Shown here in pieces: positions 609 through 37,663 of a DNA stretch of 64,000 nucleotides. This DNA is from a virus. The notes under the pieces were generated by a model. It saw only the letters and a list, made by a program, of their open reading frames with translations, had not been told where the DNA came from and made no database searches. How positions within the stretch are numbered: the stretch's first letter is position 1; each line of letters opens with the position of its first letter. Position numbers and translations under genes: made by a program. The DNA lies in the IMG/VR virus record IMGVR_UViG_3300021962_000027. One strand, given 5' to 3'.

Positions 609-1322
609 TCAGGTATCCAAATAATCGTCCTTAAAAATCTTATATAAAGACTTAAATCTCTTCATACTATTCCTAATTTCCTTAGTATTTAAACCTGTCA
701 TGTTTCTAATATATAGTAATATTAGGTTTTTATTAAATTTAGGTGAATTCTTACCGTCATTAACTTGTGAGAATAATTCTCGCCATTCTTCAAGTATTTT
801 AACCAATGAGTGCCCAACTTTAAATTCGTTTTCGGATAAATTATCGGCATCAAGATCTTTTCTTATATTAGACGCTAGTGATTCAATAAAAATATTTAAA
901 TCTAATTCATCATTATCAATCCTATATAATAGTTCATCCCTTTTTAGGATATCACCCTCACTTTGATCAATGTCAACAAGTGACATATTTTTTTTATATT
1001 CTTTAACCATCTCACCAAAGAGATAGTTTTTACAGATGGTACCAAAATATGAAAATGATCTTTTACCCTTTTCGGGTTTAAATTTATCAAATTTAGTCAT
1101 TAAGAATGATAGTGTATCCGCATGCAGGTCGTTGAATTCGTATGATTGTCTGTATAATTTATACGTTCGTATTATACTTTCTATCATAGTATTGATAGGT
1201 TCTTGTAAATATTCTCGATAAATTTTTTCTCTTTCTCCGACAGTTTTAGCATCCAGAAACATGATCACCGCTTTCTCCTGGTCCACACCATAGTAGTTGC
1301 GATCTTTTTTCTGTCTTGCCAT
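609..1322 (-). CDS. phage RNA polymerase sigma factor, T4 gp55 (late sigma)-like
   Basis: Sigma region-2-like motif DLHADTLSFL..KFDKFKPEKGKRSFSYFGTICKNYL, typical of gp55-like sigma factors. Confidence 0.75.
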   Translation of the reverse strand: MARQKKDRNYYGVDQEKAVIMFLDAKTVGEREKIYREYLQEPINTMIESIIRTYKLYRQSYEFNDLHADTLSFLMTKFDKFKPEKGKRSFSYFGTICKNYLFGEMVKEYKKNMSLVDIDQSEGDILKRDELLYRIDNDELDLNIFIESLASNIRKDLDADNLSENEFKVGHSLVKILEEWRELFSQVNDGKNSPKFNKNLILLYIRNMTGLNTKEIRNSMKRFKSLYKIFKDDYLDT

Positions 1323-2152
1323 TATTCAGTAACTTCATTTTCCTCATAAATTATATGTCTGTCTTCGTTAAACATGTACTCTTTTTTAGCCGTTTCCATC
1401 CAGAAAATAGCTTCTTTTGGTTCGATTTTGTATTCGATAGCCTCGCTATTTTTATATAACCAGAATAACGAACCATCTCTCATGTTAATGTGTTTATACC
1501 CAATTTTAGGGATAACCATTGATTTGTAACCATTTTTATGGAAACGCAATAAGAACTCATAATTAAATGTTAATTTTATTTGCTTAAGACCGTTGATTTC
1601 ATTGTAAACAGATGTTTTAATAACCATACCACACGGACTGATATTTGGGTATTCCAATAAAGTTTCCAAATCAATTGACCCTAGATTTTCTGTAAAATTA
1701 TACGCCCATACAGCTTCGTTTGATAAACCGATAAATTTATTATCTTCAGCAACATCATTAATAATTGGTAAAAACATGTCAACATCCGAATAAGCTTGGA
1801 TATGCTCTTCAACATTTTTATACCAAGTTTTTGAAACCTCATCATCAAATTCGAGCACACTCATAAATTCGGTTGTAACTTCTTTGGCAGCGAAATTTAA
1901 TTGATTTTGGTAATCGCTATCACCGTCATTGGTGATAACCTCAATGTTTAAGTCATATTTTTTGAAATCGAATGTTTCCATTTTAGCGATCACATCAATG
2001 CAATTACATGTAACGATTAAAACCTTTTCTGGTTTAGTATCATTTCTATCGATTGATGATAATGCGATGTCAAATAAAACATCAAATTTTTGCGTACCGA
2101 TATCCTCTACTGAATGTACTGGTACTATAACGGTTAAATTAGTTTTCTTCAT
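1322..2152 (-). CDS. glycosyltransferase, GT2/GT-A fold
   Basis: N-terminal LTVIVPVH, DxD-like EFDD, C-terminal YEFLLRF...VIPKIGYKH. Confidence 0.8.
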   Translation of the reverse strand: MKKTNLTVIVPVHSVEDIGTQKFDVLFDIALSSIDRNDTKPEKVLIVTCNCIDVIAKMETFDFKKYDLNIEVITNDGDSDYQNQLNFAAKEVTTEFMSVLEFDDEVSKTWYKNVEEHIQAYSDVDMFLPIINDVAEDNKFIGLSNEAVWAYNFTENLGSIDLETLLEYPNISPCGMVIKTSVYNEINGLKQIKLTFNYEFLLRFHKNGYKSMVIPKIGYKHINMRDGSLFWLYKNSEAIEYKIEPKEAIFWMETAKKEYMFNEDRHIIYEENEVTE

Positions 2153-3221
2153 TTTCTTCTACTGTTTGTTGGTTAAAATTTTCTTTTATTTTTTCTAATT
2201 TAGAAATCTTCTTATTGAATAAGTGTTGGAAAACTTCTGTTGTATTCTTTTCAAAAATTTCGTGTGTATATCTATCGATGATGGTTTCGGAAACATTAAG
2301 TAAATTTTCTGGTAATGTATCATCTAACCAATTTTTAATATAACTAGATAAGATCTCTGGGATCTGATTTTCATCATAAACCCAAATTCCATTATCATCC
2401 GTCATCCATTCTGGGATGATATTAGGTACTTTACCGATAACAGGTACATTACATCTAATTGATTCAGCTGGGAATCTACCGAAAGATGAATCATCATCAA
2501 CCCAAATAGAAACAGCACATTCTTTTAAATTTTCCGCAAAATCATTATGATTCATAGCGTGCATATCTTTAAAAGAGATAAATCTGTAAATAGGATATTT
2601 AAGGTAAAACGCTTTAATAATCTTAGCAGCTTTTCTCGCTTCACGGCAATGAATTGCGATGATAGGTTTTTTTGGTTTTTCGCTAGTTGTAAAAACTTCT
2701 GATAAACTTGGTTCGATGAACTGTACGTCTTCCACGGGAACCGTATCTTCGATCATAGCCTTTAATGTATTAGAAGTAGTGATGCACTCTTCAGCACCAA
2801 GATCAACCCATGATTTACCAGGTGAAAAAGCTTCTAACATGTAGTCAAAAGACTGTACATAAATGATTTTTTCCAAAGGCATTGTATTGATTTGTTCAAA
2901 CACACTACCATAAACTTCTGGTACAACGATAAAATCAGATGGTCCAACAACTAAATTGTTGTCTTCAATAGACATGTGTTCTAATTCATCACATTCTGGT
3001 GTTAACCAAGAACCAACTTTAATGAAGTCATTTTTTTCGTGTAAAATAGCCACATTATAACCATTATTTTTAAGCGCTAATGCTTGGTTGTACAAGTGAA
3101 TCACACTTGATTTACCGTTACCCTTTGTATCAGGTACTAGGAAAATAATTTTATGCTCTTTGTTTTTAATCTTATCGATCGCAGAGTCAAGATTTTTAAC
3201 TATTTCTTTACTTTTTTCCAT
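2139..3221 (-). CDS. glycosyltransferase, GT-B fold (GT4-like)
   Basis: DFIVVPEVY..., SSFGRFPAESIRCNVPVIG resembles the GT4 EGFGLPxxEAM motif. Confidence 0.7.
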   Translation of the reverse strand: MEKSKEIVKNLDSAIDKIKNKEHKIIFLVPDTKGNGKSSVIHLYNQALALKNNGYNVAILHEKNDFIKVGSWLTPECDELEHMSIEDNNLVVGPSDFIVVPEVYGSVFEQINTMPLEKIIYVQSFDYMLEAFSPGKSWVDLGAEECITTSNTLKAMIEDTVPVEDVQFIEPSLSEVFTTSEKPKKPIIAIHCREARKAAKIIKAFYLKYPIYRFISFKDMHAMNHNDFAENLKECAVSIWVDDDSSFGRFPAESIRCNVPVIGKVPNIIPEWMTDDNGIWVYDENQIPEILSSYIKNWLDDTLPENLLNVSETIIDRYTHEIFEKNTTEVFQHLFNKKISKLEKIKENFNQQTVEENEEN

Positions 3222-3843
3222 TTTTTTCTTTATTTAGTTTTTTTAGTAGTTTGAATAATTCTTCAGTATTAATTATAGTATAATCGGATTTAATGTCAAT
3301 ATTAAATTCATTTTGATATTTTATCGATACCTTATCTTTGGGTTTTGTTTTAAGTAATTTGGGGTTATCTGTCACTAGTACATCACAGTTAGACCAAAAA
3401 TCCTTCCACTTTTTGGGGAAGACTATCTGATCTAGGTTATAGTAATTCTTACTTAAGAAAAATAATGTAGCCGACTTTGATCTTTGGCTTTCATTATTCA
3501 ATAAAATTATATTGATCTTATTTTTATTGGAGAAATCAGATATTTGTTTAATTATACCTGGTATTGTCTCATCTGTTCTCCCAAAAACCTCAAAACAAGC
3601 GTCCTCATACATAAATCTATCCAGATTAAAAGATGTATCTTTTTTGTTTTCAGTAAATTCAATCTCTTGGTCGTCTTTGAACTCAGGTTCGTCAACATCA
3701 CCTTCAATATCTGGGAAGGACTTGGATAAATCAAAAGGATTTATAGGTTCGATAGCTTCTTTTTCGAATTCGAACTCATATAAATCCTTAAGTTTTGAAA
3801 TGTGGTCTCTTAGTATGTTGTTTATAGTTATACCTACTATCAT
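3208..3843 (-). CDS. HAD-fold 5'(3')-deoxyribonucleotidase-like protein, degenerate active site
   Basis: MIVGITINNILRD resembles IGIDIDGVLRD, and CDVLVTDNP resembles DILIDDNP. The catalytic Asp residues are replaced. Confidence 0.55.
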   Translation of the reverse strand: MIVGITINNILRDHISKLKDLYEFEFEKEAIEPINPFDLSKSFPDIEGDVDEPEFKDDQEIEFTENKKDTSFNLDRFMYEDACFEVFGRTDETIPGIIKQISDFSNKNKINIILLNNESQRSKSATLFFLSKNYYNLDQIVFPKKWKDFWSNCDVLVTDNPKLLKTKPKDKVSIKYQNEFNIDIKSDYTIINTEELFKLLKKLNKEKNGKK

Positions 3844-3891: not shown

Positions 3892-4656
3892 CTACATTTT
3901 ATTTTCGTTAAATATTTTTTCGATTTTTTTGATTAGAGGGTTTCTTACAACATCGTCTTCACCCAAAACAATCGTACCAACTTCATCAAAATCGCTAAAC
4001 TTTTGGATGATGAAGTTTAATGAACTCTCACCTCTTTTTTTCATATCAATTTGATTTTCATCACCAAGAAAAATCATTTTAGAGTTTTCACCTAATCTGG
4101 TCATGATTGTTCTGATATTATCTATTGAGATATTTTGAGCCTCATCGATAATAGTGATCGAATTATCAATATTGATACCTCTCATATACGCAATCGGCAT
4201 CTCTTCGATCATATTATTAGCTCGTAGAATTTCAACATTATGTTTACCAACCACTTTTTCAAAATTATGCATAAATGAGAACATAAATGGTTCCATCTTT
4301 TCTTTCATCGTACCTTTTAAAAAACCAATCTCTTCATCTTTTAAAGTCGTTACCGATTTAACTATAACAATTTTTCTATATCTAGAGTCATTCTTAAGTA
4401 ATTCCAAAGCCATGGCGCATGATAAAAAGGTTTTACCAGTACCTGGTAAACCAGAACAAATAACAATCTCTTTATTCCTTATTTCAGTAATGAGCTTTTT
4501 TTGGTTTTGAGTTTTGCATTTAATGTCCACCTTCATTTTATCTAAAACATTACCACTGTGCGCACGGGTAATACTTTCAAGAGCTTCATACTCTTCTTCA
4601 GGTGTTAATTTTTTTCTCGTTCTTCTTGTTGTTGGTTTTGTTTGTCTGTTACCCAT
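3892..4656 (-). CDS. phoH: PhoH family ATPase
   Basis: GLPGTGKTFL Walker A, EIGFLKG, YMRG, IIDEAQN, TRLGENSK, GDENQID. Confidence 0.95.
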   Translation of the reverse strand: MGNRQTKPTTRRTRKKLTPEEEYEALESITRAHSGNVLDKMKVDIKCKTQNQKKLITEIRNKEIVICSGLPGTGKTFLSCAMALELLKNDSRYRKIVIVKSVTTLKDEEIGFLKGTMKEKMEPFMFSFMHNFEKVVGKHNVEILRANNMIEEMPIAYMRGINIDNSITIIDEAQNISIDNIRTIMTRLGENSKMIFLGDENQIDMKKRGESSLNFIIQKFSDFDEVGTIVLGEDDVVRNPLIKKIEKIFNENKM

Positions 4657-4657
4657 A

Positions 4658-4948
4658 TTAAAAGTAATTTTCGCTGTTTATATTTTTATCATCAATAAAT
4701 AAATCATAAGGTGGTTTACCAAACTTTAACTCGTGGTATTTAACACCCCATTCTTTAAATTGTTTCTTTGTTAACTCTGAATGGTCAATACCTGTAACAG
4801 AACCTCTTGCTGTCCAGTATACAATTGTATTACCTTCATCGTATAATTTATTTATTTTTTCAATCCTTTCGGGCATCGGTGTTACTTCATTATAATCGGT
4901 ACCCTCTGTAACACATATTGTATTATCAATATCAACGTATATTAACAT
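4658..4948 (-). CDS. small HAD-family phosphatase (capsule-biosynthesis type; candidate nonulosonate-9-phosphate phosphatase)
   Basis: VDIDNTI (motif I), WTARG (motif II), GKP..DLFIDDK (motifs III/IV). Lies directly downstream of the NeuB-like gene. Confidence 0.85.
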   Translation of the reverse strand: MLIYVDIDNTICVTEGTDYNEVTPMPERIEKINKLYDEGNTIVYWTARGSVTGIDHSELTKKQFKEWGVKYHELKFGKPPYDLFIDDKNINSENYF

Positions 4949-4983
4949 AGTTTAACTAATTTGATGTCGTCTTTATTTTTTAA

Positions 4984-5817
4984 TTATTTTCTTAAACTTT
5001 TTTGTTTACTCAGTTCACCACCAAATAGTTCTCTAGCCATCATTGGTATTGATAGGGCTGCTTCGATATCACGAACACCTTTAACTAGTTTAAATAACCC
5101 AGATGGTTCAATTGATGCCGAATGATCTGAACCCCACATATCTCTATCCAGTGTGATATGTCGTTCAATCCAAGTTGCACCCATTGGGATGGTTGCAAAC
5201 GTTGTAACTAAACCATATTCATGACCACTATAACCAATCTCTTTATCAGGGTACCAGTTTTTAAGCCAATGGATATAATTGAGATTTAATTCATCAACAG
5301 GGCATGGGTATGTTGAATTGGTATGCATGATAACATCAGGATCACACTCTGAGATACAAGCCCTAACTTCTTTTTCAGTACTCATACCAGTTGAAATCAT
5401 CAGATAATCTGCTTTCCCCCTGGCGTACTGACATAACTCAGAATCGGTTATTAGAGCTGATGGTATTTTCATAACAACACCCAAATCGGTTTTATATTTC
5501 ATCATAAAATCAACCGATGATTTATCCCAAACAGAGGCAAACCAATTAATACCGATTTCTTTACAGAATCTATCAATTTCGTCATATTCTTCATAACCAA
5601 ATTCTGTTCTCCATTTATATTCTAAATAAGTTATTTCACCCCAAGGTGTCTGACGCATTTTACTTTTTTGCTCCTCTGGTACGCAAACGTCTGGGTTTCT
5701 TTTTTGAAACTTTACGTAGTCACATCCAGCGGCTTTTGCAACAAGGATTAAATCCTTTGCTATTTTAAGGTCACCGTTATGGTTGATACCTATTTCAGCG
5801 ATAATTTTTGTACTCAT
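4984..5817 (-). CDS. neuB: N-acetylneuraminate/nonulosonate synthase (NeuB family), without the C-terminal antifreeze-like domain
   Basis: IIAEIGINHNGD, VKFQKR, KIPS, ISTGMS, HTNSTYP, GYSGHE, IERHITLD, GSDHSAS. Confidence 0.93.
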   Translation of the reverse strand: MSTKIIAEIGINHNGDLKIAKDLILVAKAAGCDYVKFQKRNPDVCVPEEQKSKMRQTPWGEITYLEYKWRTEFGYEEYDEIDRFCKEIGINWFASVWDKSSVDFMMKYKTDLGVVMKIPSALITDSELCQYARGKADYLMISTGMSTEKEVRACISECDPDVIMHTNSTYPCPVDELNLNYIHWLKNWYPDKEIGYSGHEYGLVTTFATIPMGATWIERHITLDRDMWGSDHSASIEPSGLFKLVKGVRDIEAALSIPMMARELFGGELSKQKSLRK

Positions 5818-5821
5818 TTTG

Positions 5822-6463
5822 TTAATTAATTAAATCGGTGTAAAATATTTTATTTAGCATAATGTAGTCGTTTTGTTTGACATTAATTGATGATGATTTA
5901 AATATAGGGAAAAATCCCATTTTTTCAACATATTCTAGAACTTCTGGTTCAAGTGTTTGTCCGTTAAAATACTCAAGTTCCTCAGTCTCAATCTGTAGAA
6001 CCCTAATTTTATTTAATAAATTACCAAAACTTTCTAAAGCCTCTAAGGTTGCACCCTCAACATCGATTTTTACAAGATCGGGTATTAACAGATTATTTTT
6101 TGTGATAAAAGTATCCATTCTAGAACATTCTAGTTCAACTAATATATCTTTAGTTTTTGAAAGGTTTTGTTCAAAAATACTATGTATACCATTTTGTTCT
6201 TTCTGATAAAATTGTGTTTTGCCGTCATAATTACGAATAATTATTTGGTGGAAACTAACTTTATCGGTGTTTTTGTCTCGTAAAAATTTTTCATAATTAT
6301 CGGGTAATCCTTCAAAACCAACAACATCGCAATTAAATAATTCTGATAATAAAAAACTATCAGCGCCATTAAGGCATCCTATGTCGTAAACTGTTTTTAT
6401 TTCTGAGATGTCAATTTTTTTAACTAAAACATCTTTCATTGTTTGCATGTCTAATCTAGCCAT
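5822..6463 (-). CDS. FkbM family methyltransferase
   Basis: YDIGCLNG SAM-binding motif and DLVKIDVEGA. Confidence 0.88.
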   Translation of the reverse strand: MARLDMQTMKDVLVKKIDISEIKTVYDIGCLNGADSFLLSELFNCDVVGFEGLPDNYEKFLRDKNTDKVSFHQIIIRNYDGKTQFYQKEQNGIHSIFEQNLSKTKDILVELECSRMDTFITKNNLLIPDLVKIDVEGATLEALESFGNLLNKIRVLQIETEELEYFNGQTLEPEVLEYVEKMGFFPIFKSSSINVKQNDYIMLNKIFYTDLIN

Positions 6464-7302
6464 TTTTCGTAAATTTTAATGTATTCATTTGCAATTGTTT
6501 TCGGGTCCCAATATTTTTCCATCCAAAGCCTGCTTTCATAACCAAGCTCTAAAACATTATTTAAACCAGATTCAATTAACTCAATTAATTTATTTTTTAA
6601 TTCATCACAATTAACATTGATGAATGGATTTCTATCTGCACCAGAAGCTTCTAATAAAACTTTATTAACACTACTACCAATAGAACATATTGTTGCTGAC
6701 CCCATGGCCATAGCCTCTAACCCAGATCTATGATATGATGTTGTTTTAACCTCATCTATGAATATGTTACATAAAGCTTTTCTTTCTAAACATTCTTTTA
6801 AGGGTACACCAATTATTATATCAATTTCAATTTTATCTTTATAAATCTCTTTTAATTCGTTTAAAATAGGTACTGTCTCAACATACCCTTTATCAGCCCA
6901 ATCGGAACCTGGTTTAAGTGTTGATGGTGAGTAACCAATACGAATGATATCTTGTTGATATTGCGGGAAGAACATTTCGTCATATAAATCAATCGGATTC
7001 CTAACAATTTTACAGTTACTGTATTCTTGTAAAGTTGCGTGGTATTGCGCTATAACTAATTTAGGGCATGTGGCATCTAACGCAACCCTAAAAGGTTCAC
7101 TATGAAATTGAATTATATTTTTTTTATCCGTATCAATTAGTTTATTGTGCTGGTGTACGATATCGGTTTCAGGTATAATACCTTTTTGGGGGTATGAATA
7201 CCCAATAACATATGAATTATGATTTGTATATTTGTTAATAACATCACTAATAGCTTCAGGTGCTTTAGCTATTGCTGTTGGTTTATATTGTGCTATTATC
7301 AT
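6451..7302 (-). CDS. glycosyltransferase, GT-B (GT4-like)
   Basis: IGYSPS...KG, IFIDE, SGLEAMAMG motif, and an ELGYESRLWMEKYWD C-terminus. Confidence 0.75.
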   Translation of the reverse strand: MIIAQYKPTAIAKAPEAISDVINKYTNHNSYVIGYSYPQKGIIPETDIVHQHNKLIDTDKKNIIQFHSEPFRVALDATCPKLVIAQYHATLQEYSNCKIVRNPIDLYDEMFFPQYQQDIIRIGYSPSTLKPGSDWADKGYVETVPILNELKEIYKDKIEIDIIIGVPLKECLERKALCNIFIDEVKTTSYHRSGLEAMAMGSATICSIGSSVNKVLLEASGADRNPFINVNCDELKNKLIELIESGLNNVLELGYESRLWMEKYWDPKTIANEYIKIYEKWLD

Positions 7303-8293
7303 AAAAAGTTATAATATTATTTTCCTTATCGTAACTATTAGCATTTTCCATTATACTATTTTTTTCAAAATTATAATCATGTACGCTTGATATATTTAAA
7401 CTAACACCTTCATCGGTTCTTAAAATACTTTCGAGCCCGTTTTCGTAAAAATTAAAACCAATTAAATCTATTTTTTCGTAACCACCTAATTTTAATAATA
7501 ATGTTAACATAACAAAACCAGTTGTTGGTGGTTTATTTGTTATTTTTTGTCCATTTATTTCATTATGGTGATTATATTTTAATATAAGACTCTGTTTGAA
7601 TTTATCTAACGATTCAATTTTTTTAATCCAGTTTTTTAATGAAATTGAAACTACAAATCTAATTGGTACAAATTGATCTAGGTTTATATCTTGTAAATAA
7701 ACACTAGCGTGTATCGTGGTTTTTTTACCAGTATACTCTTCATCTAATTTAAAAGAATTAAACCTAATAACTATATCGTATGAATCAATTAGTCGGCCAT
7801 TTTTATTTTTTAATAAATCAGATGAATTAGCGACAAGTATTATATTTTTACCACTAATAAAATTTTTAAGATTTGTTAAATCAATAAAAGACCTGTTAAC
7901 ATTTTTAATCTTTAATTCACGATCTATAGTTTTTGATAATTTATCAATACTTTCTGAGTTTAGATTTTTTTTATCACTAATTAATTTATATAATTCAGTT
8001 AAATTCCTACCAGATTGTTGACCTTTTTTTTCAAATACCTTTTTGATAACCGTTTCAACAACATTACCTTTTTTTAATGTCGAATCTGGTACAACGCTAC
8101 ACCCTTTTTTCATAATAGTGGGTTCTGGTGTTGAGCTAATACCCCTTTTAAGGTGTGTTTTTTCTGGGACAACAACTTTTTCCTCAATAATAGCGCTCTG
8201 TTTGTCAGTATCAACTGTGACAACCTGCTCATCAGATTTTTTAACCACCTTGCCTTGCGTAAGGCCTTTATTTTTCTTTATGAAATAACCCAT
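7283..8293 (-). CDS. GT29-like sialyltransferase with a Lys-rich N-terminal extension
   Basis: Sialylmotif L (ILVANSSDLLKNKNGRLIDSYDIVIRFN...YTGKKTT), motif S (PTTGFVML...IDLIGF) and motif VS (HDYNFE). Confidence 0.8.
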   Translation of the reverse strand: MGYFIKKNKGLTQGKVVKKSDEQVVTVDTDKQSAIIEEKVVVPEKTHLKRGISSTPEPTIMKKGCSVVPDSTLKKGNVVETVIKKVFEKKGQQSGRNLTELYKLISDKKNLNSESIDKLSKTIDRELKIKNVNRSFIDLTNLKNFISGKNIILVANSSDLLKNKNGRLIDSYDIVIRFNSFKLDEEYTGKKTTIHASVYLQDINLDQFVPIRFVVSISLKNWIKKIESLDKFKQSLILKYNHHNEINGQKITNKPPTTGFVMLTLLLKLGGYEKIDLIGFNFYENGLESILRTDEGVSLNISSVHDYNFEKNSIMENANSYDKENNIITFYDNSTI

Positions 8294-8918
8294 CTAGATC
8301 TATTTTTGTGTCAACATCAATAACATCGTCAATTTTAAAGAAAAATGTGTCATCGTTATATAAATTATTATTAAGTTTTGTAAGTTCATTAACATTAAAT
8401 ATACAAACATAATGTGAAATCTCAAATACCGCTGGGTAATCTTGTCTTCTATATAAATTATGTTTAACCAATTGGGCACCTTTATTACCAATAATATCAA
8501 ACATGTATAAACAAGGGTGTGTTGATTTTATGTCTTTCTTACAAAGAAGGCTTTTCGCACCTTGTTCGATAAAGAATGTATATGCGTTTTTAATATCAGA
8601 CCAAGTTCTTTCTGGGTATGTTAAATAAAGCATAATAACGGTGTCACCAAAATTAATATCATTATTATCGATATGGTATTGGATGACATCTTTTGTACTT
8701 GTCTCATCCAGAGATAGATTATCTGGTCTAACACTAACATTTAAACCAATACTTTTACATTTTTCAATTAAAACCTCATCATCGGTTGAGATAAGTAAGT
8801 CTTTAAAATATTCAGTTGGAATAGTGTTGATCGTGTGTTCAAATAATAACCTATTTTTAAAAGGTAACCCTTTTGAATTACGTCTAGCTGGTATTAATAG
8901 TTTAACTTTATCGGTCAT
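8268..8918 (-). CDS. neuA: CMP-nonulosonate (acylneuraminate) cytidylyltransferase
   Basis: LIPARRNSKGLPFKNR, ISTDD, RP..LS.D, LYLTYPER, RRQDYP, IDVDT..D. Confidence 0.9.
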   Translation of the reverse strand: MTDKVKLLIPARRNSKGLPFKNRLLFEHTINTIPTEYFKDLLISTDDEVLIEKCKSIGLNVSVRPDNLSLDETSTKDVIQYHIDNNDINFGDTVIMLYLTYPERTWSDIKNAYTFFIEQGAKSLLCKKDIKSTHPCLYMFDIIGNKGAQLVKHNLYRRQDYPAVFEISHYVCIFNVNELTKLNNNLYNDDTFFFKIDDVIDVDTKIDLDGLFHKEK

Positions 8919-9577
8919 CTATATGTTCTGTTTTCTAGATTTAGTGAAACAAAGGGTATAACTGATACAACATTAGCGTCATAATGTTTTTTAACCTGTT
9001 TTTTTACCAAAATAGTTTGACCCTCTATCATTTTCAACCAAGTCTTATATTGATTCCAAGTAGACCAAGGTGTATCTTTTATTGTATTATAATACCCCTT
9101 AAAAGTCATTTCTCCATCAATTGTACCACAATCATGTCCAATCAAAATTATGTTCTTAGCGCCCATGTAAGCTGCTATATGAATAGCTGAGGTTATTGTT
9201 GAGAAGCTCACAACAATTTTATCACCACCGAAAACAGAGATGTCTACTTTATCGTGCAGATTATCGTTATGTTCGAAATAGTAAAGATTATCATGGTCCA
9301 CCTTGTTCGTGTTTAATTTATCCTCACCAGTGTTTAGGTTACCACTATCGTATTCGGAAACGATTACAATTGACTCTGTCGCTAAACTTTCTTTTATGAA
9401 TTTAACTTCTTTTCTAACTAAGTAATCACACCATATTTTTTTATAAGCTTGATTAACTCCGATAACAATTTTGTTATCAAAAAAATCTTCGTTGAAGAAA
9501 TCAACAGATTTACCTGAGGCTAATACGTATATGTCTTCACCTTGATGTTTATTCTTTAGTTCGATAATACCTTTCAT
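8915..9577 (-). CDS. Maf/DUF115 (MptE-like) fold protein, putative nonulosonate transferase
   Basis: LKNKHQGEDIYVLASGKS...IGVNQ...AIHIAAYMGAKNIILIGHD, the signature of the Maf/DUF115/GT42-like fold. Confidence 0.7.
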   Translation of the reverse strand: MKGIIELKNKHQGEDIYVLASGKSVDFFNEDFFDNKIVIGVNQAYKKIWCDYLVRKEVKFIKESLATESIVIVSEYDSGNLNTGEDKLNTNKVDHDNLYYFEHNDNLHDKVDISVFGGDKIVVSFSTITSAIHIAAYMGAKNIILIGHDCGTIDGEMTFKGYYNTIKDTPWSTWNQYKTWLKMIEGQTILVKKQVKKHYDANVVSVIPFVSLNLENRTYR

Positions 9578-10242
9578 ATTTTAATGGGTAATTTTTCCCC
9601 GTATTTATATTCGAATAATTTTTTATTAATCTCCCATTGATCATTTGTTTTACCAACTGAAAGGTGTGTAACCGATATATTTGTTACAACACCAATTTTA
9701 ACACCATCTAGGTGGTTAGGTAAACAGAATGATAAATCATAAAAATGAAAACCATGGAAATTATTATCAAAATTATGTTTAATTTTAGTTCGATTAATAG
9801 CTAAAAATAAACCGTCAAGAACAACCATTTGTTTTATGTTGTCACCTTGTTGTTGAGAAAACATGCTAGTCCATTTTTTTTTACCGTCACTATGATTAAC
9901 AATACCATGCATGGATTCTCTAATTGACCACCATCTACCGTCAACTAATCTATTGGTACCAGCTATGCCGATTATACCATAATCCATGTTTTTTTTAAAA
10001 TGTTCGATAATCTTTTTACCCCAATGTCTAGTTTCAAAAATAAGATCATCATGGCAAAAAACTATAATATCATTTTTAGCGTCAATTAAACCTTTATTAT
10101 ATATTTCGGTTAAAGAATGCTCACCATTATTTTCATACGGTAAGATCTCTATACCATCACATAAACAAGTTTTTTGAATATGTTCTATATAATCTTGGTT
10201 AATCTCCCTAGTTGAGAAAACCACACTTATATTATTAATCAT
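9574..10242 (-). CDS. glycosyltransferase, GT2-like
   Basis: YNKGL..AKNDIIVFCHDD, GIIGIAG, LDGLFLA, FHFYDLSFCL. ATG at 10242 is preferred over the upstream start at 10281. Confidence 0.82.
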   Translation of the reverse strand: MINNISVVFSTREINQDYIEHIQKTCLCDGIEILPYENNGEHSLTEIYNKGLIDAKNDIIVFCHDDLIFETRHWGKKIIEHFKKNMDYGIIGIAGTNRLVDGRWWSIRESMHGIVNHSDGKKKWTSMFSQQQGDNIKQMVVLDGLFLAINRTKIKHNFDNNFHGFHFYDLSFCLPNHLDGVKIGVVTNISVTHLSVGKTNDQWEINKKLFEYKYGEKLPIKI

Positions 10243-10540
10243 AATCCTCTTCAATAATAAGCGGTCTTTCCAGATTATCATTTTTATATTTCAAAACTGG
10301 TATGATACCTTTTATTTTCTGTATAAAAGCAAACTGATTTGTAACCTCGTTAAGTTCACGCTCAAGAAATGTTGTTAATTTATAATCTTCAGAATTTAGT
10401 GGATACACAAAGGCGTATAAAACTTTGTCACCCACTTGTATTCTCTTACCAGACCATACGGTTTTATATTCAATACGATCGAGTACATCTGGTGTAATCG
10501 ATTTGTACGCTCTTATTTGATCTTTAAATTCACTTACCAT
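10235..10540 (-). CDS. hypothetical protein
   Basis: 101-aa ORF overlapping both neighbours in the operon. Confidence 0.65.
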   Translation of the reverse strand: MVSEFKDQIRAYKSITPDVLDRIEYKTVWSGKRIQVGDKVLYAFVYPLNSEDYKLTTFLERELNEVTNQFAFIQKIKGIIPVLKYKNDNLERPLIIEEDYD

Positions 10541-11121
10541 TATTTAACCCCTGTTGATCCGAATCCACCAGAGCCCCTTTCTGAGCTTGATAATGAATCG
10601 GTTTTTATAAATTTAGTTTTATTAATCGTTTGCACGGCAGCGATAACACCCTGAGCAATTCTATCACCTTTGTGGATATAAAAGGGTGTTGACTTATCAG
10701 TATTATATAAAATAACACATACCTCACCTCTGTACCCAGAATCAACTGTACCTGGGCTATTTAATACCATAATACCGTTTTTTAAAGCTAATCCGCTTCT
10801 AGATCTAACCTGTAGTTCATATCCACCTGGTATTTCGAAATGTAGTCCAGTTGGTATTAAAGCTCTATGACCTGGTTCAATTTCAATTGGTAGCTCATTA
10901 TTAGCTCTAATATCAAATCCACTATCCCCATCTTTTTCATACGCTGGGTCTTGGTTTTCAGAATTATTAATGAAACTAACTTTTAACTTAACGGTCATTG
11001 TTTCATTATCATACTCCCATCCACCCATTAAATCATTAGTTTGTGCTAAAAAATTGTCTAGCTCACTTTTTGTTTCATCATCAAAAAGTTCATTAAGGTC
11101 TAAATCTTGTAAGTTATCCAT
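10540..11121 (-). CDS. dut: trimeric dUTPase
   Basis: SGFDIRA, RSRSGLA, NSPGTVDSGYRGE, GDRIAQ, RGSGGFGSTG (motifs 1-5). Confidence 0.97.
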   Translation of the reverse strand: MDNLQDLDLNELFDDETKSELDNFLAQTNDLMGGWEYDNETMTVKLKVSFINNSENQDPAYEKDGDSGFDIRANNELPIEIEPGHRALIPTGLHFEIPGGYELQVRSRSGLALKNGIMVLNSPGTVDSGYRGEVCVILYNTDKSTPFYIHKGDRIAQGVIAAVQTINKTKFIKTDSLSSSERGSGGFGSTGVK

Positions 11122-11122
11122 A

Positions 11123-12346
11123 TTATAATAATGTTTTGTAAATTTCAGATCTTTCTTTTGTCACCGTATTTAAATTATATCTATCCTTAACGGTTTCATA
11201 TAATTTTTCACCTAAATCTTCCACTAAGTTTGGGTTATCAACTAACCTCTTAACATGTTGACTCCATTGTTTATGGTTTTTACTTGATTCAACTAACAAC
11301 GAGTTACCGTTATTATTAAAACCACCACCTTTTTCAATCGCTGAAATTAAATCTATTGTATAAGGTCCATAATTTTGTGCAATAATAGCTTTTTTATGGA
11401 AACCAGCTTCAATAATCTTTAACTGTGATTTATATTTATTAAAAGATGTTTCTACCAAAGGTGCCAAAGCAACGTCAAATTCATTATAACCTTTGGCATA
11501 TGTTTCAATACTTTTAGTCCATATTCTTCTATATGGCATATCCTTATCGTTATATGGTAATTGTGAATCAAATTTTAATAAATGTTTTAAATAATCCGAA
11601 TGTTTCTCTAATAACCTAAAATTATCAGTAATAAAAATCTCATACATAAACCATGTTGTTTCAATTGGTTGCATGTCTCTTTCCATCCACTGATTTGTTT
11701 CTTTATTAAACATTTTGACCTTACCTCTTGTGTCATAACCACAAAGAACAAACTGAATTTTATCAGAATATTCCTTAACTCTTTGTGGAACACCTTTAAG
11801 CAATTCAATATCTTTAATGTGTGATGACCCACCTAACCATCCGAATCTAAGTTTTTCGGATTTAGTTGGGTTCGGTTTAAATTGTGGTTCATTAGGGTTT
11901 ACCGCATTTGGTAAAACTACACAATTTTTATTGTGCTTAAGAACATCTTTTTGTAAAATACTTGTTGTTACAGTGACTAAATCAGCTTCTTTAATAACCG
12001 ACACAATTGTGGCTGGAAAATTTAAGGCTTTAGATTGTTGATACATCCCGTGAGATGGGTCTAAATTCCAGTGATCATCTAAATCGATAATAACTTTACC
12101 ACCGAATGATTTAATCTTTTTAATTATTTTAAGAGCATCAGCAAAATTATTTCCAGGTACCCTGTGAAAAAAGAATAGTTGGAATTTTTTTAAATAACTA
12201 TCATCATCAAAATTAACGTCATAGTTTATTTCAACGAAATAATCATCACCATGGTTATTTTGAAGCGATATATGCGGGTCTAGGCATCTATATTTACCAG
12301 AACCAGCACGATCACTAGGGTTTACAAGAATATTTATCTTACTCAT
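11123..12346 (-). CDS. glycosyltransferase, GT-B (GT4-like)
   Basis: IDLDDHW, GWLGGSSH..D, DVALAPL...FN.YKSQLKIIEAG. Confidence 0.85.
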   Translation of the reverse strand: MSKINILVNPSDRAGSGKYRCLDPHISLQNNHGDDYFVEINYDVNFDDDSYLKKFQLFFFHRVPGNNFADALKIIKKIKSFGGKVIIDLDDHWNLDPSHGMYQQSKALNFPATIVSVIKEADLVTVTTSILQKDVLKHNKNCVVLPNAVNPNEPQFKPNPTKSEKLRFGWLGGSSHIKDIELLKGVPQRVKEYSDKIQFVLCGYDTRGKVKMFNKETNQWMERDMQPIETTWFMYEIFITDNFRLLEKHSDYLKHLLKFDSQLPYNDKDMPYRRIWTKSIETYAKGYNEFDVALAPLVETSFNKYKSQLKIIEAGFHKKAIIAQNYGPYTIDLISAIEKGGGFNNNGNSLLVESSKNHKQWSQHVKRLVDNPNLVEDLGEKLYETVKDRYNLNTVTKERSEIYKTLL

Positions 12347-12401
12347 TAAATTATGTTTCTATAATAATAAGAAAAATAAAGCAAAAATCAAAATATATTG
12401 T

Positions 12402-12433
12402 AAAAAAAAAATGGGGAGTATCAAACTCCCCAT
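12402..12433 (-). terminator. intrinsic terminator (minus strand)
   Basis: Hairpin atggggagt-atcaa-actccccat next to an A-run, which is a U-tract on the minus strand. Confidence 0.85.
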
Positions 12434-12460
12434 CATTAATCTTGTTAAGTTCTTTAACAA

Positions 12461-12655
12461 TTAGTTTTTAGATTCATTAACAATATTGTCGAATTTACCT
12501 TCTTTTGCGGCCTCTACAAAATCAGCAAATTGGTTTTTAGTCCAAGTTGTTATACCTTCTGGACCTTCTTTATCACCTAATACAATAGCGTTTTCTTGAA
12601 CCTCGATAACTGGACAACATTTGTTTTTACAAAATTTAATTACGTTACTTTCCAT
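12461..12655 (-). CDS. small protein resembling DUF397
   Basis: CCPVIEV...IVLGDKEGPEG..TWTKNQFADFVEAAKEGKFD parallels the DUF397 pattern CVEVA..VxVRDSKxPxGP.L.F....W.AF...VK.GEFD. Confidence 0.55.
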   Translation of the reverse strand: MESNVIKFCKNKCCPVIEVQENAIVLGDKEGPEGITTWTKNQFADFVEAAKEGKFDNIVNESKN

Positions 12656-15165: not shown

Positions 15166-15209
15166 TCGATATTTTTCTATAAATATCGGTGATTTAAGTA
15201 ATATTTCAA

Positions 15210-18876: not shown

Positions 18877-20384
18877 TAGAATAATTTATTAATAAATATC
18901 TTTCTACCACCGTTTATTGTCCTTAGGTTATAAATATTAGTCATATTACTAACTATTTTTTTAACCTCTACACTATACAAAGGTACACAATACATCTGAA
19001 AATCCTTTACACCACCTAAAAATGTTCCAGCGAAGAATTTCTCAAGTACGGTGTTTATTTTCTTAGTCTCATCTAAATATAACGCATCTAAAAGATTTTG
19101 CGTACCACCACCAAATGAGATATTAAAAGGGACACCTTCTTGGTATTTACTATCAACATCTAATTCATGCGGTGTTACCTCAACAAAATCATAGTTTCTC
19201 AAAACCATTTTACCGTTTAAGTAAATTGATAACGTACCTCGTCTGTACTTACCATATAATAGTTCACAAGAATCCTTGTAGGCGAAATCCCTTTCAAACA
19301 CACTACTTACATGTAAAAACTTTTTCTCATTAACATCTATTACTGGTTTTTTTGTGTAACCCTCTTCTATTGTAAAATATTTTGTAACTATTAAAGAAAT
19401 TGTGTGATTAGAACAAGCGTCATCTGGTTGTTGGATGAATGAGTTTGTTGTGATACCACTAACTTCTTGTGTTTGACCAGTGTAACATATATCCGTTGGA
19501 TATATGGTTCTGTAACCAATTCTACCATCGTTGGTTATTCTTAAACCAAACGCATTGTAATATAAATCGGAATACTCCTGGTGGTATTGTAAAACTTGAG
19601 ACTGTGGTGTATATTTTCTACCAGTATACATTAATCCGTTATAATAGTTAAAATAACCTATATATTTTGAACTACCATTTAGGGTAAGCATACCATTATA
19701 TGTGTATATATTTTGTAATTCTTTTGGTATTATGGAATAACTATCATTTAATTTTTTAACCTCAACAACTGTTTTATCAGCATATTTGTTTTCAGATCTA
19801 GTACCCATATAAAAAATAAAACCAGTATTACCTGTAAACATCTCGTTCAGTGTAATACCTGTAGTGGAACCTGTGGTGGAACCTGTGGTGGAACCTGTGG
19901 TGGAACCTGTAGTGTTCATTGGGAAGTGTAGTAACATGTTAACACTAAAACCCTTTCTACCTCTTGTTGGAAACCACTCAACAGGTTGTTTGTGTATTTT
20001 ATAAAACCCTTGATAAAAACCACCTTTCAATTGATTATAATATTGGCCATTATCCGATTTTAAGTGTTCTATCTCATAAGTGAATTGCCCTGTATAACCA
20101 GAAACTTCGTGAAAACAAAAAGTATCACCGCTTTCAACAACATATGTTACATCTGGATCAATTTTACCATTACCATTTGGTATGAAAAAATTATCATAAC
20201 CATTAAGTCCTATATAATCCAATTCAACATTTGTTGCTTGTGTTATACCTGGTCTAGAACATAGCCCTTGAGTAACATCAATTTTAATTAAATGACACTC
20301 ACTATAATCACGATAAAAATCTCTACAATCTTTTGTGACCGTTAAATCAAAATATTCACTATTATCTAGGGCTGTATAAAACAT
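18876..20384 (-). CDS. putative virion structural protein (concanavalin/LamG-like features, (TTGS)n repeat)
   Basis: Located after the neck gene. GTLSIYLNGK, ISFGGG and F.GGV..FQMY..PL resemble LamG. Rich in [ST]GxT motifs. Confidence 0.55.
   Translation of the reverse strand: MFYTALDNSEYFDLTVTKDCRDFYRDYSECHLIKIDVTQGLCSRPGITQATNVELDYIGLNGYDNFFIPNGNGKIDPDVTYVVESGDTFCFHEVSGYTGQFTYEIEHLKSDNGQYYNQLKGGFYQGFYKIHKQPVEWFPTRGRKGFSVNMLLHFPMNTTGSTTGSTTGSTTGSTTGITLNEMFTGNTGFIFYMGTRSENKYADKTVVEVKKLNDSYSIIPKELQNIYTYNGMLTLNGSSKYIGYFNYYNGLMYTGRKYTPQSQVLQYHQEYSDLYYNAFGLRITNDGRIGYRTIYPTDICYTGQTQEVSGITTNSFIQQPDDACSNHTISLIVTKYFTIEEGYTKKPVIDVNEKKFLHVSSVFERDFAYKDSCELLYGKYRRGTLSIYLNGKMVLRNYDFVEVTPHELDVDSKYQEGVPFNISFGGGTQNLLDALYLDETKKINTVLEKFFAGTFLGGVKDFQMYCVPLYSVEVKKIVSNMTNIYNLRTINGGRKIFINKLF
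19857..19914. repeat. 12-bp tandem repeat (acctgtggtgga, about 4.8 copies) encoding (TTGS)n
   Basis: Directly visible in the sequence. Confidence 0.95.
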
Positions 20385-21475: not shown

Positions 21476-21483
21476 TTCACTAA

Positions 21484-21498
21484 TATTTATTATAAATA
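21484..21498. promoter_or_regulatory. pair of opposed late-promoter motifs TATTTAT-t-ATAAATA
   Basis: Palindromic arrangement between the divergent neck gene and the GP88-like gene. Confidence 0.6.
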
Positions 21499-25862: not shown

Positions 25863-25968
25863 AAATAATAAAACTTTTTTTAAAATGAATCGATCTTACG
25901 GTTTTTTGGTAAAAAATGTGATATTTATGAATAAGTAAAATTAAATAATAAATAAAAATTAACTAAAT

Positions 25969-29285: not shown

Positions 29286-29376
29286 GTATTTTGAAATATT
29301 TTTTTAAAAAGGTGTACAAAACGAAAAACAAAGATATTTATTAAAAAGAATAAAACAAAACTAAATAAATAACAAT

Positions 29377-31418: not shown

Positions 31419-31445
31419 ACTAGATATTTATTAATAAAAACATTT

Positions 31446-37632: not shown

Positions 37633-37663
37633 AAAAAAACAATTTAAATAATATTTATAAGAT

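Follow-up and report, generated by a model that had tools for sequence, protein, structure and literature searches.

A candidate module for the synthesis and transfer of a nonulosonic sugar, with a GT29-like transferase, in an uncultured T4-like phage

A compact gene module in an uncultured, giant T4-like phage is predicted to produce, activate and transfer a nine-carbon sugar of sialic-acid type. The module is located on the minus strand of the window (the whole 64,000-nucleotide stretch of IMGVR_UViG_3300021962_000027), where seven genes between positions 4658 and 9577 encode an HAD phosphatase, a NeuB-family synthase, an FkbM methyltransferase, a GT-B glycosyltransferase, a GT29-like protein, a CMP-synthetase and an MptE/DUF115-like protein. 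All seven were found where the original prediction had placed them. The reading that we favour, with moderate confidence and on the basis of sequence and fold comparison, is that the phage synthesizes and transfers a nonulosonic sugar by the 9-phosphate route, with the virion weakly favoured as the target. By sequence similarity the gene set recurs across hundreds of uncultured phages. The new elements are a gene order conserved on several phage backbones, fusions of the synthetase to the GT29-like protein, linkage of the NeuB and HAD genes, and complete relatives that are free of an epimerase. As an overall reading the original prediction holds for its gene content and its epimerase-less logic, and needs correction for the type of phosphatase, the description of GT29 as mainly eukaryotic and the Maf-like assignment, which scores below threshold.

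Read in the direction of the genes, the island is preceded by a terminator-like hairpin (12434–12410, with a 10 bp stem containing 5 GC pairs, and a T-run) and then a sigma-70-like promoter (12391–12364, TTGATT-16-TATTAT), both of which are consensus matches only. The first gene (11123–12346, minus strand) is weakly assigned as a GT-B type glycosyltransferase (PF13692 at 9e-4, below cut-off), and retains 60–76% identity across same-backbone relatives. The same operon includes a GT2-like glycosyltransferase (Glyco_tranf_2_5; 9574–10281, minus strand; PF13712 at 4.2e-26), after which the strand continues through the genes for the MptE-like protein, CMP-synthetase, GT29-like protein, compact GT-B, methyltransferase, synthase and phosphatase. 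Another GT2 glycosyltransferase (1322–2152, minus strand; PF00535 at 9.2e-6) lies further down the array.

The GT29-like protein (7283–8293, minus strand) comprises a disordered, basic N-terminal region (residues 1–102) and a catalytic domain (about 110–336). It matches PF00777 with 38.8 bits (cut-off 23; E = 9.2e-10), the alignment covering only residues 149–196, which correspond to motif L; PF00777 is present in 57 of 59 homologues. The family profile aligns with residues 94–256 of ST3Gal-I, comprising motifs L and S (E = 4.8e-6), and retrieves GT29 chains only. N156, S157, G166, D170, D173, R177, N179, G259, G279 and F280 are invariant in the alignment, as is an arginine (R292) located between motifs S and VS. 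Sialylmotif VS (H-x4-E) is found as H305-D-Y-N-F-E310, where E310 is invariant and 90% or more of the 33 sequences retain H305; H305 is the predicted catalytic histidine. Sialylmotif III (H/Y-Y-x-E/D) is unrecognisable in alignment A1.

The predicted structure of the protein has a GT-A variant 2 fold that is closest to the solved GT29 enzymes. The first 19 ranks of a Foldseek search are all GT29 chains (8e-8 to 2e-4), with ST3Gal-I at 8e-8. Comparison using VIA gives Z = 14.8 for ST6Gal-I, 13.8 for ST3Gal-I, 12.4 for ST6GalNAc-II and 10.5 for ST8Sia-III, against 9.4 for MptE HPPK, 8.0 for Cst-I and 7.8 for Maf. Judged from the model, the protein is clearly nearer to GT29 than to GT42 or Maf. 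The assignment as a GT29 protein with sialylmotifs L, S and VS made in the original prediction is thus borne out by the Pfam score, the profile, the H-x4-E motif and the fold, and the product of 7283–8293 does model as GT29. There is no hydrophobic segment that might form a type II anchor (maximum KD19 1.22), and the cysteine positions of the L–S disulfide of the animal enzymes are not conserved in the alignment. The N-terminal region contains 23 K+R and 13 D+E in 110 residues; the phage GT29-like proteins have in common a basic leader of this kind, which is disordered, variable and contains hKKG repeats.

The protein falls in a large prokaryote and phage branch of 472 clusters. The cellular relatives are 29–39% identical, and are mostly Actinomycetota (Cellulomonas, Isoptericola, Streptomyces), with others in a Polyangiaceae genome, Brevundimonas and Falsiroseomonas. 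The view of GT29 as mainly eukaryotic is therefore dated by this branch and by the bacterial GT29 proteins reported in 2018 (PMC5811610).

The gene for the CMP-nonulosonate synthetase (NeuA/PseF type; 8268–8918, minus strand) overlaps that for the GT29-like protein by 26 nt. The synthetase matches PF02348 at 1.9e-6, and PDB 1eyr (the CMP-Neu5Ac synthetase of Neisseria meningitidis) at 2.2e-16. The best curated model is PseF (TIGR03584, 6.4e-14), with KdsB reaching only 0.075. A synthetase gene is linked in 57 of the 80 best NeuB-selected viral loci (from a total of 516). Since Kdo or Dha is the presumed donor sugar of the GT29-like enzymes of plants, the GT29 fold leaves the donor unfixed. The constant adjacency of the GT29-like gene to that of the synthetase, and fusions of the two, point only indirectly to a CMP-activated ulosonic acid as the putative donor. 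CTP_transf_3 and GT29 are contained within one 445-aa ORF in L011 (9329–10666) and are also fused in P0066, while in P0116 the MptE-like protein, CTP_transf_3 and GT29 are all fused.

In 13 IMG/VR loci the core genes follow one another as CMP-synthetase, GT29, GT-B, variable insert, NeuB and HAD. These span several phage backbones; the flanks of three (L005, L011 and L014) have no homologue of the backbone genes of this phage.

The compact GT-B glycosyltransferase (283 aa; 6451–7302, minus strand) belongs to this conserved core, its gene adjoining that of the GT29-like protein in all 13 loci. It has no match in Pfam or PHROG, and 130 homologues of about 280 aa. The predicted model (pLDDT 94.6) is a two-Rossmann GT-B fold with a C-terminal E-x7-E-like motif; across 33 sequences E184, H191 and E196 do not vary. 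Foldseek matches it to PimA (2gej) at 7.9e-11, and VIA to BshA (Z = 20.5) and PimA (19.6) over 262–263 residues. Its earlier designation as GT4 holds as a GT4-like GT-B fold, and not as membership of the CAZy family given the lack of a Pfam match.

Two of the proteins are accessory, or probably so. The gene for the FkbM-family methyltransferase (5822–6463, minus strand; PF05050 at 7e-13, TIGR01444 at 1.6e-17) occupies the variable slot, and L003, L004 and L013 are the only loci with FkbM there. Elsewhere the slot is filled by Methyltransf_24/TylF-type methyltransferases, and in L007 it contains a DegT-type fragment and a PglD-like acetyltransferase. The MptE/DUF115-like protein (8915–9577, minus strand) was the weakest item of the original prediction, where it was called Maf/DUF115-like; with 28.3 bits it falls short of the PF01973 cut-off (34.6). 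The protein also matches phrog_4603 ('alpha-2,3-sialyltransferase') at 1.9e-6, and in the Atlas it falls in viral clusters with PF01973 in 10% of members. Every same-backbone relative has a GT29-like gene, an MptE-like gene or both, and where GT29 is absent the MptE-like gene is the sole candidate transferase. This pattern fits the suggestion of two candidate transferases, and the MptE-like protein is a possible second nonulosonate transferase.

The NeuB-family synthase (277 aa; 4984–5817, minus strand) matches PF03102 with E = 1.7e-60, and relatives of this type are encoded in 516 IMG/VR viral stretches. The TIM-barrel domain is present with its metal- and PEP-binding residues. E8, K36, Q38, K117, S120, H199, E218 and H220 are conserved, and the residues equivalent to E25, K53, K129 and H215 of N. 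meningitidis NeuB are kept. The position of E134 in that enzyme is leucine, both here (within the conserved KIPSALITD motif) and in 124 of 125 relatives. The synthase scores 196.9 bits with TIGR03569 (NeuB_NnaB, cut-off 399.65) and 143.7 bits with TIGR03586 (PseI, cut-off 340.25), and so misses the equivalog cut-offs for both Neu5Ac synthase and pseudaminic acid synthase. The SAF domain of NeuB contributes R314 to the sugar site. That C-terminal (antifreeze-like) domain is absent here; PDB alignments stop near residue 256, and the close relatives are all 270–299 aa. The predicted sugar pocket is remodelled by the missing SAF domain and the leucine at the E134 position. NeuB proteins lacking a SAF domain are known in environmental bacteria (PMC8208679).

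The HAD gene (4658–4948, minus strand) begins 36 nt past the NeuB stop and encodes a capless protein of just 96 aa. It has the full set of four HAD motifs (DxDxT, T, K and DD), and 18 homologues show no variation at D6, D8, T10, T46, K78 and D87. Pfam gives no match. The protein matches phrog_1238, a widespread phage family, at 6e-29, the 'capsule biosynthesis' protein PDB 9iqw at 5.4e-10, TIGR01689 ('capsule biosynthesis phosphatase') at 2.5e-7, which is below the cut-off of that model, and the BT0820-family HAD at 1e-3. Neither the KdsC-like Kdn-9-P phosphatase nor NANP was seen among its matches. The proposed parallel with the Bacteroides KDN pathway fails for the phosphatase, which is no orthologue of that type and matches TIGR01689 and the BT0820 family. 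We propose that it is a putative nonulosonate-9-phosphate phosphatase.

The genes for the synthase, phosphatase and CMP-synthetase share one operon. Amongst the best 80 of the 516 NeuB-selected viral loci an HAD gene lies within 8 kb on the same strand in 73, and is often adjacent; from the HAD side NeuB is linked in 53 of 80 loci. No match to NeuC (Epimerase_2) was found in the window ORFs scanned, as had been claimed, nor is there NeuC, NanE or AGE in two complete relatives (G004, 298,833 bp, and G007, 54,448 bp, both 100% complete by CheckV), in a search where control genomes were positive. The earlier logic of synthase, phosphatase and CMP-synthetase without an epimerase is backed by these linkage counts and complete relatives, which support a probable 9-phosphate route from a host hexose-6-phosphate. 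From this we infer Kdn as the simplest product.

In the proposed mechanism the SAF-less NeuB would join PEP to a hexose-6-phosphate of host origin; mannose-6-phosphate is the simplest candidate and would lead to Kdn-9-P. The 96-aa HAD would take off the 9-phosphate, the NeuA-type enzyme would form the CMP-sugar, and the soluble GT29-like enzyme would move it onto an acceptor that is probably built by the adjacent compact GT-B and other glycosyltransferases of the island. The methyltransferase and MptE-like protein would be swappable accessories, the latter perhaps transferring nonulosonates alongside the GT29-like enzyme or in place of it. Membrane helices are predicted in none of the island proteins (no 19-residue segment with a Kyte–Doolittle mean of 1.5 or above), so the glycan would be assembled in the cytoplasm. 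Virion proteins are weakly favoured as the target.

The enzymes might instead act on the inner side of the host membrane, extending lipid A-core or some other glycan carried on a lipid, with export by host transporters. This is possible, if somewhat doubtful, and the resulting masking of receptors would provide superinfection exclusion, or spare progeny from binding debris. Haemophilus, Neisseria and Campylobacter perform lipooligosaccharide sialylation using a similar set of enzymes, and GT25 'LPS biosynthesis' genes are found within the module of L005 and L006, alongside GT2, GT4 and CMP-synthetase. The basic N-terminal region of the GT29-like protein could hold it at an anionic membrane. 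However, genes for a flippase, a polymerase, a ligase and an initiating phosphoglycosyl transferase are all missing from the window, and the island proteins lack predicted membrane helices. Moreover, phage-driven surface conversion is best known in temperate phages, whereas this phage looks lytic. The island shares a dense array of co-directional genes with those for dUTPase, PhoH and a sigma-factor-like protein, and lacks in sense orientation the ATATTTAT motif found ahead of structural genes, fitting early or middle expression; yet early expression would equally be needed to fill the sugar-nucleotide pool ahead of virion assembly.

It is unlikely that NeuB takes an unphosphorylated host sugar, either ManNAc or, as in the synthesis of legionaminic and pseudaminic acids, a 2,4-diacetamido sugar, with the HAD serving another step, for example the dephosphorylation of some other sugar phosphate or of an intermediate of the glycan. 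The 'capsule biosynthesis' and phrog_1238 matches of the HAD would suit such a role, as would PseF as the best model for the synthetase and the DegT-type fragment and acetyltransferase in L007. In addition, about a third of the HAD-selected loci have no nearby NeuB (at least 15 with full flanks have none inside 8 kb). Against this, the linkage in 73 of 80 NeuB-selected loci and the complete relatives without a NeuC/LegG-type hydrolysing epimerase argue for the 9-phosphate route, the window contains no dehydratase, aminotransferase or acetyltransferase, and the NeuB_NnaB model outscores PseI. A further point against the 9-phosphate reading comes from Streptomyces loci in which a GT29-like gene occurs with a CMP-synthetase and a NeuB of 49% identity, and in which the search made found no such HAD.

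T4 protects its DNA from restriction with glucose, and a dUTPase/dCTP-deaminase-like gene lies inside the island. An analogous hypermodification of phage DNA is nevertheless very improbable: the resemblance of the compact GT-B model to the T4 alpha- and beta-glucosyltransferases (Z = 18.4 and 14.2) is generic, with BshA and PimA scoring higher and dozens of unrelated GT-B enzymes alike, the window ORFs scanned yielded neither a base hydroxymethylase nor a comparable gene, and we know of no case of a nonulosonate on DNA.

Neither a nonulosonate pathway nor a GT29-like enzyme is described for any bacteriophage in the literature searched. The phage genes are comparable to those of the Kdn pathway of Bacteroides thetaiotaomicron (BT1713–BT1715) and Prymnesium parvum, and of the vertebrate NANS/NANP/CMAS route (PMC6200933). 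Each has a NeuB-family synthase, an HAD-superfamily phosphatase and a CMP-synthetase without a NeuC-type epimerase, and the logic in common is PEP plus a hexose-6-phosphate followed by dephosphorylation, as predicted for the phage from its genes. The phage differs in its capless 96-aa HAD of TIGR01689/BT0820/phrog_1238 type, in a synthase without a SAF domain and with leucine at the E134 position, and in the carrier itself.

The bacterial GT29-like sialyltransferases of Petit et al. 2018 (23 sequences, mostly from alpha-proteobacteria; PMC5811610) have motifs L, S and VS in common with the phage protein, lack a transmembrane anchor and conserved disulfide cysteines, and are likewise from an aquatic setting. 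The phage proteins differ in the basic hKKG leader and in being gene-linked, and sometimes fused, to the CMP-synthetase, and the cellular relatives found here are mostly Actinomycetota rather than alpha-proteobacteria. The best structural matches are the animal Golgi enzymes (4js1 ST6Gal-I, 2wnf ST3Gal-I, 6apj ST6GalNAc-II and 5bo8 ST8Sia-III; Z = 14.8 to 10.5 over 193–228 residues), with the L, S and H-x4-E motifs in common. Identity is 15–21%, and the phage protein, which lacks the type II anchor, stem, disulfide and a recognisable motif III, should act in the cytoplasm. GT42 Cst-I/Cst-II and Maf (5mu5 for the Z of 7.8) belong to the same fold superfamily, and are soluble cytoplasmic enzymes that use CMP-nonulosonates in lipooligosaccharide sialylation and on flagellin, respectively; the MptE-like protein matches this side of the superfamily, below threshold. 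Virus-encoded glycosylation of virions is known for the capsid and tail of mycobacteriophages and the fibril glycans of giant viruses (PMC9614988). The phage resembles these viruses in having its own glycosyltransferases, and the giant viruses further in their own synthesis of sugar nucleotides.

The source of the DNA is an uncultured tailed phage with a G+C content of ~31%. The window encodes a contractile-tail sheath, a family B DNA polymerase, a DnaB-like helicase, a UvsX-like recombinase and the RNR small subunit, together with gp32, a T4 baseplate protein, a 5′-3′ exonuclease and PhoH. Judging from the size and completeness of its near relatives in IMG/VR, contigs of 298,833 bp (CheckV 100% complete) and 153,961 bp (CheckV 52%), this is probably a jumbo T4-like phage of ~300 kb.

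The glycan island lies in an array of 16 minus-strand genes tightly packed from 12346 to 609, with neighbours that overlap or are separated by very short gaps. Following the direction of transcription, the array starts with a weakly assigned GT-B glycosyltransferase (11123-12346), a dUTPase/dCD-like gene (10540-11121), a 101-aa ORF (10235-10540) and a GT2_5 gene (9574-10281). It then continues through an MptE-like protein (8915-9577), a CMP-synthetase (8268-8918), a GT29-like transferase (7283-8293), a 283-aa protein (6451-7302), an FkbM methyltransferase (5822-6463), NeuB (4984-5817) and a 96-aa HAD phosphatase (mini-HAD; 4658-4948). After PhoH (3892-4656) come an ORF with no assignment (3208-3843), a 360-aa ORF with no firm assignment (2139-3221) and a GT2 (1322-2152), and the array terminates with a sigma-factor-like protein (609-1322). 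Every gene listed in the original prediction is present. The only weak call among them is that of a Maf/DUF115-like protein: the gene exists (the MptE-like one), with a PF01973 score that falls under Pfam's cut-off. The dUTPase/dCTP-deaminase-like gene sits among glycosyltransferase genes, and this placement is conserved in relatives. The 360-aa ORF is kept in all relatives with the same backbone and has a faint Glycos_transf_1 match (E 0.021); its product could be one more of the island's GT-B enzymes. In Atlas the product of the last gene matches clusters of viral 'RNA polymerase sigma factor' with scores of 0.98-0.99, and its Sigma70_r2 match is weak (E 0.076); 26 of 80 viral loci selected by their HAD have a relative of it no more than 8 kb from the mini-HAD.

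NeuB belongs to a type of 270-299 aa lacking the SAF domain, for which at least 8,000 candidates were scored in the protein collection, all with E <=1e-10; relatives are encoded in 516 IMG/VR stretches. In 73 of the best 80 viral loci a mini-HAD is located within 8 kb of NeuB on the same strand, about half of them within 25 nt, and a CMP-synthetase is detectable in 57 of these 80. The mini-HAD is not exclusive to NeuB loci: 53 of the 80 HAD-selected loci hold NeuB, while about 10 of the other 27 end close to the HAD. It looks functional, because its catalytic residues are invariant. Neither NeuC (PF02350), NanE (PF04131) nor AGE (PF07221) was found in two CheckV-complete relatives (G004, 298,833 bp, and G007, 54,448 bp), with control genomes positive; a weak cupin match in G004 (PF01050, under cut-off) has no counterpart in the window. 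The phage NeuB keeps the metal and PEP ligands. The absent SAF domain supplies R314 in the Neisseria meningitidis enzyme (PMC8208679). The position of E134 (N. meningitidis numbering) is leucine in the phage protein, inside a KIPSALITD motif that 124 of 125 relatives share; the sugar pocket is, as far as sequence can tell, remodelled. The abundance of NeuB, its linkage to the HAD, the invariant HAD residues, the missing epimerases and the remodelled pocket combine to make a 9-phosphate route the most economical reading of the module, and one that we regard as probable. A host hexose-6-phosphate and PEP would give a nonulosonate-9-phosphate, which would be converted to the free sugar and then to the CMP-sugar.

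The synthetase is of the NeuA/PseF type and not KdsB, and the synthase is NeuB and not KdsA, so a nine-carbon sugar is more likely than Kdo. To our knowledge mannose-6-phosphate is the sole universally available manno-hexose-6-phosphate, and for this reason Kdn is put forward, tentatively, as the simplest candidate for the product. Kdn is the product in B. thetaiotaomicron and P. parvum (PMC6200933).

The transferase encoded at 7283-8293 is recognized by Pfam through motif L only. A profile built from 33 family members matches GT29 chains only within the PDB, aligning with pig ST3Gal-I through motifs L and S (E 4.8e-6). N156, S157, G166, D170, D173, R177, N179, G259, G279 and F280 are invariant in the family alignment, and H305-x4-E310 corresponds to sialylmotif VS. 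Residues 110-336 are modelled confidently by AlphaFold, and residues 1-102 have pLDDT <50. The best Foldseek matches of the model are ST3Gal-I, ST6Gal-I, ST8Sia-III and ST6GalNAc-II. An independent all-against-all aligner gave the same four enzymes Z scores of 14.8 (ST6Gal-I), 13.8 (ST3Gal-I), 12.4 (ST6GalNAc-II) and 10.5 (ST8Sia-III), compared with 9.4 for MptE HPPK, 8.0 for Cst-I (GT42) and 7.8 for Maf. Failure of this product to model as GT29 had been set beforehand as a refutation; both comparisons place it in that family. The first 110 residues begin with a conserved MGxFIKK followed by three hKKG repeats (LKRG, MKKG and LKKG), and the length of this leader and the number of repeats differ widely among homologues.

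In a 50%-identity library the GT29-like family spans 472 clusters at E <=1e-3 and 29 at E <=1e-30, none of which carries an informative name. Cellular relatives of 29-39% identity occur in Cellulomonas, Isoptericola, Streptomyces, a Polyangiaceae genome, Brevundimonas and Falsiroseomonas. The earlier description of GT29 as mainly eukaryotic is outdated, since bacterial GT29 was first reported in 2018 (Petit et al. 2018; PMC5811610). The GT29 gene is the fastest-changing of the module, with 65% identity in a related locus (L002) versus 82-96% for its neighbours.

In the window the genes for the CMP-synthetase and GT29 share a 26-nt overlap, and the two are joined elsewhere. A single 445-aa ORF (L011:9329-10666) contains CTP_transf_3 followed by GT29, and fusions of the same two domains are found in the homologous proteins P0066 (696 aa) and, with an MptE-like domain in addition, P0116 (749 aa). 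These natural fusions are good evidence that the GT29-like enzyme draws on the CMP-sugar of the synthetase as its donor. In P0065 (1310 aa) GT29 is joined to a GT1/GT4 domain. The 283-aa protein at 6451-7302, predicted originally as a GT4, has neither a Pfam nor a PHROG family; it has 130 homologues, each of ~280 aa. Its model (pLDDT 94.6) is a compact GT-B fold nearest to retaining GT4 enzymes (BshA, Z 20.5; PimA, Z 19.6; Foldseek 7.9e-11 for PimA), in agreement with that assignment. It is paired with GT29 in all the loci compared below, which suggests that it either builds the acceptor of the GT29 or extends its product.

The order CMP-synthetase, GT29, GT-B, variable insert, NeuB, HAD is constant in 13 IMG/VR loci with a substantial GT29 homologue, a count in which one locus (L012) ends before NeuB; the insert measures 0.6-6.6 kb. 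The 10-kb flanks of three loci (L005, L011 and L014) contain no homologues of the backbone genes of the window, indicating that the module has moved between phage lineages; the contig of L011, 54 kb long, is rated complete. The variable slot holds differing GT2 and GT25 genes, a second GT29 paralogue and O-methyltransferases (Methyltransf_24/TylF/CmcI in relatives, FkbM in the window), as well as a PglD-like acetyltransferase, a DegT fragment, PGA_cap and a radical-SAM protein in relatives. The paralogue (L005:10443-11111) is short, at 222 aa, and adjoins a GT25 gene.

All loci with the same backbone carry at least one transferase candidate, either GT29 with the GT-B enzyme, the MptE-like protein alone, or both; none is without both. 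Given this distribution, a match to phrog_4603 and the P0116 fusion, alternative nonulosonate transferase is a reasonable role to propose for the MptE-like protein, one to which we give about even chances. It shows no detectable relation to the GT29 profile by hhalign or to P0116 by BLASTP, and phmmer against the PDB found nothing.

Cellular clusters resembling the module occur in three Streptomyces genomes (L028, L030 and L031), where a 496-aa GT29-like protein lies within 10 kb of a CMP-synthetase and NeuB. This NeuB is 49% identical to that of the phage, with a related KVASASLTD motif. By gene content these clusters are the module's counterpart in cells, minus the mini-HAD, which was not found in the three genomes with one query sequence, a result that does not show its absence. 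A partial NeuB 96% identical to that of the window (P0351) lies on a 3-kb contig that NCBI labels a Bacteroidota MAG; the label hints weakly at the host, or else the contig comes from a phage and was binned together with that of its host.

Upstream of the island a strong terminator-like hairpin (12434-12410) is followed by a sigma-70-like promoter (12391-12364). The motif (G)ATATTTAT occurs in 29 copies in the window against 18 expected, a number reached in 2 of 100 shuffles, and precedes structural genes, those of the sheath and tube among them, by ~15-45 nt. Copies are located at 25921-25928, 29334-29341, 31424-31431, 37651-37658 and 21483-21490 on the plus strand and at 602-609, 15179-15186 and 18892-18899 on the minus strand. 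The motif may be a late-promoter element of this phage. There is no sense-orientation copy between 610 and 14900 and hence none inside the island; together with the sigma-factor-like gene ending the array, this suggests early or middle expression. Two other signals were rejected. TATAAATA, the late promoter of T4, shows no enrichment (14 copies, 17 expected), nor does the strict Bacteroidota promoter consensus (4 in the window versus 3.5 expected, none before the island).

In none of the island proteins does hydropathy exceed 1.5 over a 19-residue window, and no flippase, polymerase or initiating transferase is seen in the window; glycan assembly is on these grounds predicted to be cytoplasmic. 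Virion proteins are the favoured target, at slightly less than an even chance, because the soluble enzymes would act directly on proteins and there is precedent for virus-encoded glycosylation of virions. Transfer of the glycan to the host envelope is rather unlikely, and early or middle expression would be compatible with it as well as with a virion target. DNA is an unlikely target.

Enzymes of these kinds, and the route, have been described before. Uncultured phages commonly carry the module; resources built on cultured phages lack it. Of its five core proteins, four (NeuB, the CMP-synthetase, GT29 and the GT-B enzyme) are without a PHROGs family, and megablast of 4000-12500 against GenBank phages gave no match. 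By tblastn, 50,697 GenBank phage records contain no close GT29 homologue, only a 27%-identical stretch in an uncultured huge phage (LR756500), and NeuB matches only LR756508 (51%), Marine virus AG-345-L05 (42%) and a Moritella contig. A full-text literature search found no description of a phage nonulosonate or NeuB/sialyltransferase module.

Nonulosonic acids are key surface signals of animals and many bacteria. A phage with its own genes for synthesis, activation and transfer would widen virus-encoded glycosylation to acidic nine-carbon sugars. The fullest reading is that hundreds of uncultured aquatic phages make a Kdn-type, possibly O-methylated, nonulosonate, that the mini-HAD is a previously unrecognised 9-phosphate phosphatase, and that a soluble GT29 caps the phage's own virion fibres or tail proteins; as a whole this is rather unlikely. 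If true, bacteriophage particles would bear sialic-acid-like 'self' coats, and phages would hold a large pool of a sialyltransferase family once thought eukaryotic. The phage and prokaryote GT29 branch is relevant to the origin of eukaryotic sialyltransferases. The 96-aa phosphatase, the ~225-aa GT29 catalytic domain, the 283-aa GT-B enzyme and the synthetase-transferase fusions are possible chemoenzymatic tools, small and soluble.

The mini-HAD falls into a branch (TIGR01689, the BT0820 family, PDB 9iqw, phrog_1238) different from that of the known Kdn-9-P and Neu5Ac-9-P phosphatases; the literature search found no relevant paper for PDB 9IQW. Compared with the animal GT29 enzymes, the phage protein lacks the membrane anchor and the conserved cysteines of motifs L and S, its motif III is not recognisable, and it bears instead a lysine-rich disordered leader.
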